Below are positions 14,710-15,815 of a stretch of 64,000 nucleotides of DNA, in pieces (within the stretch, counting starts at the first letter, position 1; every line of letters starts with the position of its first letter). A program made the position numbers and the translations under genes. The notes beneath the pieces are model-generated. The model did no database searches. It saw only the letters and a program-made list of their open reading frames with translations, and was not told the origin of the DNA. Origin of the DNA: Podarcis cretensis (Eukaryota); NCBI GenBank assembly GCA_951804945.1, contig OX638151.1:61442001-61506000 (forward strand). Reading direction: 5' to 3'.

Positions 14710-15815
14710 GTATCCTTTGGAGAATTATCCATTTGTATGTTAATTTCATCTCACATATCAGTTGCTAACAAGGTAACAGAGGGCAGCTCTATGTTGACAT
14801 GAGGCCTGTGTCATTGGGATTAAGGAGATTTGTTTGTGCAGACATGATGGGCGTAAGGAGAGCTGTGCTGGACAAGTTCAAAGATGTAACTGGTCCAGCA
14901 TCTGTTTCCTACTGTACTGAACCAGATCCAAGGAAAGCCAACAAGCAGAGTGCATTGCTATGTCCCTCTGTTTTTCCCCAGGTTCTGCACCTAAGGAGAA
15001 GAAGTTTAATTTAGCAAGTATTTGTGTGGGTGAGTCTAAGCAAGGACTGGGTGCCGGGTGTAGCCAATGCCACAATGAAGCAGGGTGAGGCAGCTTGCAT
15101 CAGGTGGCAATCTTTGGGGTTATCACGACTTAGTTTATAATTATTACCTTCCCTGGGTGGTGCTTGTGCCTCAGGGGCCAAAGTGTATTGCGCCACCTCT
15201 GCTCTGGGTTAGGATAGGGTTGCTGTATTTCAATAAGTAAAATTCCTGACACCCGCAAAGTTGTTGAGCAAGCATAACCTGCCCACCCAGCTGGTTTGCT
15301 CTTGAGGACCCCAAAATTGTTTTGCTATTTTGGAAACAAATCCACATTGTTGAGCTTTTTTGGGGGGAAACCTCCCCCCCCCATAGTGACTTTAAGCTTT
15401 TGGAGCTGTTTCCACTGCTCCCCCCCCCATCACATTGCCATACATCTGGGTTTCCCCTGACATTTTGGCAATTCCCCCAACACAGTTTTTACACCCGAAA
15501 ACCAGGACATGTCAGGAATTTTCCCGCCATATGGCAAGCCTAGGTTAGGAAATTTGGAAAGGATACAATAGTGGTAGTTATTGCTCTCAGATTGTGGGCA
15601 GAGGGGAACAGTGAATTAGCAGCAAAGGAGTTGAATTGAGTGGGGGAAGTTTTGCCCAGAGATATGACCAGGCAGTAGTGTGTCTGTGGAAAAGAGGAGT
15701 TTATAGCATATGTGAGAAAGGAGGGAGGCATGGGTTTGAGACCAGCACAACTATATAGCCTATTAAATGAGGGTAATTCTATTCTATACTCCTTCTTTTC
15801 TTAACTTACATATAT
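14710..15815 (+). other. ADAT2: U12-type (minor spliceosome) intron 3 of ADAT2 with GT...AT termini
   Basis: 5' GTATCCTTT; branch site TTTTCTTAAC at 15796-15805; the conserved M-K-I-P-L reading frame requires the intron to end at ...CATATAT (15815). Confidence 0.85.
15215..15542. mobile_element. hAT-type MITE, 328 bp, inside the U12 intron
   Basis: TIRs TAGGGTTGCTGTAT / ATATGGCAAGCCTA; perfect 8-bp TSD GGTTAGGA at 15207-15214 and 15543-15550; subterminal CCTGACA repeats. Confidence 0.85.

Follow-up and report, generated by a model that had tools for sequence, protein, structure and literature searches.

Introns of the minor, U12-type class are defined by their donor and branch box, and the optimal distance from branch to intron end is 11-13 nt (PMC3584512). 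Non-canonical ends are described as splicing, often less efficiently (PMC3584512, PMC1557818), and non-canonical introns of the GT-AT kind as often mis-mapped (PMC1557818). One of them was catalogued in human and mouse under the name DEADC1, with GT-AT ends and the label 'Conserved' (Sheth 2006, PMC1557818, Table 3); Deadc1 is ADAT2 (PMC4890804). The human intron was later recorded as GTAT, U12-like and 1219 nt long, with a junction carried by 205 reads in 12 tissues, five cDNAs, 16 ESTs and a GENCODE v17 transcript (Parada 2014, PMC4176328). Supplement 1 of PMC6717393 also places ADAT2 among the minor-intron genes of both species, and the human acceptor given in PMC8280824 has an AT end 11 nt past the second branch adenosine, with no ATATAT run.

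The human orthologue is known to depend on the minor spliceosome. According to the supplementary data, retention of its intron rises from 0.051 in MDS controls to 0.326 in ZRSR2-mutant cells (padj 9e-12; De Wolf 2021, PMC8280824), and in TALS from 0.006 to 0.018 in fibroblasts and from 0.047 to 0.242 in LCL (Cologne 2019, PMC6800510, where ADAT2 is absent from the main text and present in supplement rows). Loss of CENATAC brought no significant change (controls 0.095 and 0.15), which is also the case for most G-type introns (PMC8280824). Taken over these fibroblast, LCL, MDS and CENATAC controls, retention ranges from 0.006 to 0.15, and the ADAT2 control value is the lowest of the seven GT-AT introns in the ZRSR2 table (PMC8280824, supplement file 5). 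ADAT2 is absent from one supplement file of PMC3728624.

The lizard locus was analysed in a window of 64 kb, which is the whole stretch of DNA considered here (Podarcis cretensis, contig OX638151.1 of assembly GCA_951804945.1, positions 61,442,001 to 61,506,000). Searches with tblastn placed six ADAT2 exons between 8605 and 17898:

8605..8676, + strand, coding exon 1 (tblastn; intron 1, GT-AG, is joined in four of four presumed-RNA runs)
10399..10503, + strand, exon 2 (tblastn, contig joints and the six-exon frame)
14559..14709, + strand, exon 3 (carries the HAE and PCxxC deaminase motifs and ends one base into a Lys codon, phase 1)
14710..15815, + strand, intron 3 (1106 nt, U12-type, GT-AT ends)
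15816..15922, + strand, exon 4 (PDB match; a contig of run X14 covers exactly 15816-15922)
17705..17777, + strand, exon 5 (tblastn, contig joints and the six-exon frame)
17858..17898, + strand, coding part of exon 6 with the stop codon (tblastn and the six-exon frame)

Joined, the six exons give a frame of 182 amino acids plus stop, identical to the database protein P0006 at 179 of 182 positions. Intron 3 has GT-AT ends and the other four introns have GT-AG ends. In the PDB, the exon 3 and exon 4 peptides best match tRNA-specific adenosine deaminase 2 of human and mouse, and the closest named homologues belong to Podarcis and Zootoca (98-100% across exon 3). Searching the animal's own genome with exon 3 returned a single match, the present locus, from two candidates scored. 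As judged from its full-length deaminase frame, which matches named ADAT2 proteins, the gene is an ADAT2 orthologue. Around exon 1, at 8001-10000, the G+C content rises to 0.54 from a level of about 0.40 in the rest of the window, and this stretch is likely a promoter CpG island. An alternative last exon of P0003 (Podarcis raffonei isoform X2) matches 17566-17661 in intron 4 at 84%.

Intron 3 carries the two signals of a minor intron:

14710..14718, + strand, U12 5' splice site GTATCCTTT, directly after exon 3, with the best U11 duplex among the gene's five donors
15796..15805, + strand, U12-type branch box TTTTCTTAAC, with candidate branch adenosines at 15803 and 15804

The two adenosines lie 12 and 11 nt from 15815, and TTTTCTTAAC is the sole YYTTAAY match within the 1106 nt of the intron. 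The stricter pattern TTCYTTRAC finds nothing at 15796-15805 because the branch box is one base off the U12 branch consensus; this pattern has three matches in the 64-kb window against 3.48 expected. Similarly, RTATCCTT is not enriched (five matches against 4.74 expected). Since both motifs occur at chance level in the window, it is the position at the exon end that carries weight. A second GTATCCTTT is present at 14000-14008 in intron 2, about 560 nt upstream of exon 3; it is within chance and no use of it was seen. The animal's own genome holds genes for both partner RNAs, with three matches above the cut-off for U11 snRNA and two for U12 snRNA. The duplex of the intron 3 donor with U11 reaches -6.0 kcal/mol, compared with -1.2 to -3.8 for the other four donors. 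The branch box can form 11 pairs with the animal's own U12 snRNA around an unpaired A15803, at -7.9 kcal/mol. Elsewhere within intron 3 the best U12 duplex reaches -9.5 kcal/mol, and -7.9 is equalled in intron 5; U12 duplex energy therefore fails to single out the branch site, and energy alone is no evidence. With an RTATCCTTT donor, a branch box, a spacing within 11-13 nt and both U11 and U12 genes in the genome, intron 3 is, by its sequence signals, a U12-type intron.

The choice of the 3' end involves the following sites:

15814..15815, + strand, the non-canonical 3' end AT (frame enumeration, contig of run X17, and the same end and spacing in human)
15770..15771, + strand, nearest upstream AG (use gives M-M-R-stop, a stop after one codon)
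15859..15860, + strand, first AG within exon 4 (use deletes 15 codons in frame; the junction of database model P0010)
15907..15908, + strand, a later in-frame AG within exon 4 (the junction of database model P0005)

We tried each possible end between 15805 and 15830, together with all AG and AC ends between 15760 and 15921. Among these, the sequence M-K-I-P-L-V-V-Y-G is restored solely by the AT end at 15815. Human and mouse PDB chains have exactly one residue between the exon 3 and exon 4 peptides (72-121 then 123-157 in 3dh1_A; 68-117 then 119-153 in 7nz7_A). AG is absent between 15771 and 15859. An AA end at 15818 would stay in frame with the loss of one residue, a spacing found in none of the 120 homologues listed (of 553 matches). 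Two further ATs in an ATATAT run end at 15811 and 15813, 7-10 nt from the branch adenosines, and both of these ends shift the frame. The sequence-only reading had claimed a perfect U12 donor, a branch adenosine 11-12 nt from the junction, a single MKIPLVVYG-preserving junction that ends in AT, an immediate stop from the upstream AG and the in-frame deletion of 15 conserved codons from the downstream one, and all of this is borne out. Its broader proposal, a U12-type GT-AT intron with an acceptor set by distance from the branch site, is supported by the signals, the spacing and the human orthologue, and we regard a distance-set acceptor as most likely.

Database proteins carry the same junction unevenly. 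Among 120 homologues listed of 553 matches, 78 keep the one-residue spacing, with K in 57, R in 15, N in four and Q in two. In another 21 the sequence continues as x-I-L, the reading that translation through a GTATCYT donor would give, and the last 21 have other junctions. Each of these 42 listed homologues without an intact junction is either a real minor isoform or a mis-model; automated annotation is indeed likely to mis-model the site, as had been anticipated, and ADAT2 can consequently look broken in non-model vertebrates. Read without splicing, the lizard frame stops 19 codons into intron 3. The database model P0004 (Podarcis lilfordi isoform X2) continues into the intron (14710-14768) as far as the stop of this read-through frame, and represents either a transcript with the intron retained or a mis-model.

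Contigs assembled from sequencing runs bear on the junction as well. No run is recorded as RNA; 16 are presumed to be RNA by guess, and the RNA evidence used here stems entirely from relatives' contigs. Introns 1 and 2 are joined at the predicted borders in four of four presumed-RNA runs of relatives, and intron 4 also in X14. No joint from 14709 to 15816 is among the joints listed for these runs in two contig mappings, where the listings are crowded by repeats. In X14, 14709 is the last base of the spliced contig, intron contigs begin at 14680 and finish at 15845, and one contig corresponds exactly to 15816-15922. We take the relatives' contigs to have been built with 31-letter words, and on that assumption the contig ends suggest branching after 14709 and merging at 15816. 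Arithmetic on the depth bins gives X1 a piece from about 15816 to about 15845, which is a hint only. Intron 3 is covered by contigs in four of four presumed-RNA runs, which fits retention and could reflect heavier retention in lizards than in human; introns 1, 2 and 4 have patchy contig cover in the same runs, which is not a measure of level. The runs were chosen with a query consisting mostly of intron 3 and contigs cannot give levels, and therefore no retention rate is drawn from them.

Intron 3 also houses an interspersed repeat at 15215-15545, with very high summed contig depth of X17 at both ends and a perfect 13-nt inverted repeat (15239-15251 and 15510-15522). These features suggest a small non-autonomous DNA transposon. 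The relatives' contigs also carry this repeat.

Taken together, we are highly confident that 14710-15815 is the lizard counterpart of the catalogued human and mouse U12-type GT-AT intron of ADAT2, and that the minor spliceosome most likely excises it at the AT ending at 15815. By analogy with human data and the established mechanism, U11 would pair with the intron 3 donor and U12 with the branch box. The 3' end would then be chosen by distance, with its optimum of 11-13 nt, so that the minor spliceosome would cut at 15815 and AT would be accepted in place of AG. Should splicing fail, the protein would end at the stop 19 codons into the intron. Loss of the minor spliceosome would be expected to affect ADAT2 as it affects other minor-intron genes, with no special switch involved.

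Two alternatives concern the junction itself. If 15815 were an assembly error, the intron would really be GT-AG or GT-AC, a doubt that the sequence-only reading had itself raised as a T/G error. The contig of X17 (share 0.90; kind of run unspecified) covers 15497-15960 with no differences and no gaps relative to the window, and a slip of the assembly at this base is therefore unlikely. X17 may be the assembly's own source sample and so is not surely independent; however, AT also stands at the orthologous place in human and mouse in the published records, and the chance of an error here seems to us negligible. It is also very improbable, if a little less so, that most lizard transcripts use another acceptor, either an AG in exon 4 or an AT reached by slippage of 2 or 4 nt within the ATATAT run. 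The database models P0005 and P0010 do match the AGs ending at 15908 and 15860, and the ATs ending at 15811 and 15813 lie 7-10 nt from the branch adenosines. The latter two, however, would shift the frame and are closer to the branch site than the optimum of 11-13 nt, and the human intron has no such run. Forms made with the AGs lack residues that are conserved in yeast Tad2 and in the trypanosome-type chain 8aw3_2. Moreover, the contig ends of X14 and X1 point to 15816, and full-length models exist in close lizard relatives (P0003, P0006).

A different question is whether the intron acts as a regulated bottleneck, with minor-spliceosome activity setting the level of ADAT2 and hence the I34 content of tRNA. 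A rate-limiting role of U12 introns is an established hypothesis (PMC3584512), the supplements cited above show retention of the human intron both in ZRSR2-mutant cells and in TALS cells, and the retained transcript meets its stop early in the intron. Furthermore, intron 3 contigs cross both borders in the relatives' presumed-RNA runs, in which introns 1 and 2 are joined across, and the one locus found has no obvious bypass copy. Yet the human controls show low retention, the lowest among the tabulated GT-AT introns, about two thirds or more of the transcripts are still spliced in mutant cells, and the lizard runs were chosen with an intron-rich query that favours intron-holding runs. Our search of main-text literature, which leaves most subscription papers outside, found no papers linking minor splicing to ADAT2 or I34. 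Thus we consider a bottleneck unlikely. Of what the sequence-only reading had inferred in this direction, dependence of ADAT2 on the minor spliceosome holds for the human orthologue and by analogy probably for the lizard gene. The idea that the AT end makes splicing especially inefficient finds no support in the low human control retention. Slippage in the ATATAT run, proposed to limit ADAT2 output, would frameshift and, since the run is missing from the human acceptor, cannot operate as a conserved mechanism. Slightly more doubtful than the bottleneck itself is the full conjecture that the AT end was kept in lizards and mammals since ADAT2 output then follows minor-spliceosome activity, that I34 editing and codon-biased translation fall with minor splicing (for example in ZRSR2-mutant blood cells), and that lizards retain the intron more than human cells do. 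If the link to I34 were true, minor-spliceosome disease would be tied to tRNA editing. The reading we prefer is still ordinary minor splicing with a 3' end set by distance.

How does this intron compare with those already described? Relative to human and mouse ADAT2, the gene, the codon, the phase, the 12-nt donor context and the AT end are the same; the donor context at 14707-14718 equals the human and mouse 5' splice site in supplement 1 of PMC6717393. The human acceptor, as listed, also shares with the lizard the distance of 11 nt after the second branch adenosine and the first exon bases. Intron length is similar (1106 nt in the lizard, 1219 in human, 1439 in mouse). By eye, the 5' part of the branch box agrees with the consensus more closely in the lizard than in the box listed for human and mouse, the lizard intron ends in an ATATAT run whereas the listed human one does not, and the interspersed repeat sets the lizard intron apart from both mammalian ones. 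The feature is therefore real, but it has been known for ADAT2 in human and mouse since 2006, in line with the caveat of the sequence-only reading that a catalogued GT-AT intron would be real but not new. All that the lizard gene adds is evidence that a reptile and mammals have the AT end and the branch spacing in common. Beyond ADAT2, the human U12 GT-AT introns tabulated in PMC8280824 are those of ALG6, OCRL, SLC8B1/SLC24A6, GPR89A, GPR89B and CACNA2D2, which are likewise G-type minor introns with an AT end, in different genes. Counting ADAT2, five of the seven in the table show significant retention in ZRSR2-mutant cells; in the controls of the same table all six others are retained at 0.13-0.43, in contrast to 0.05 for ADAT2.
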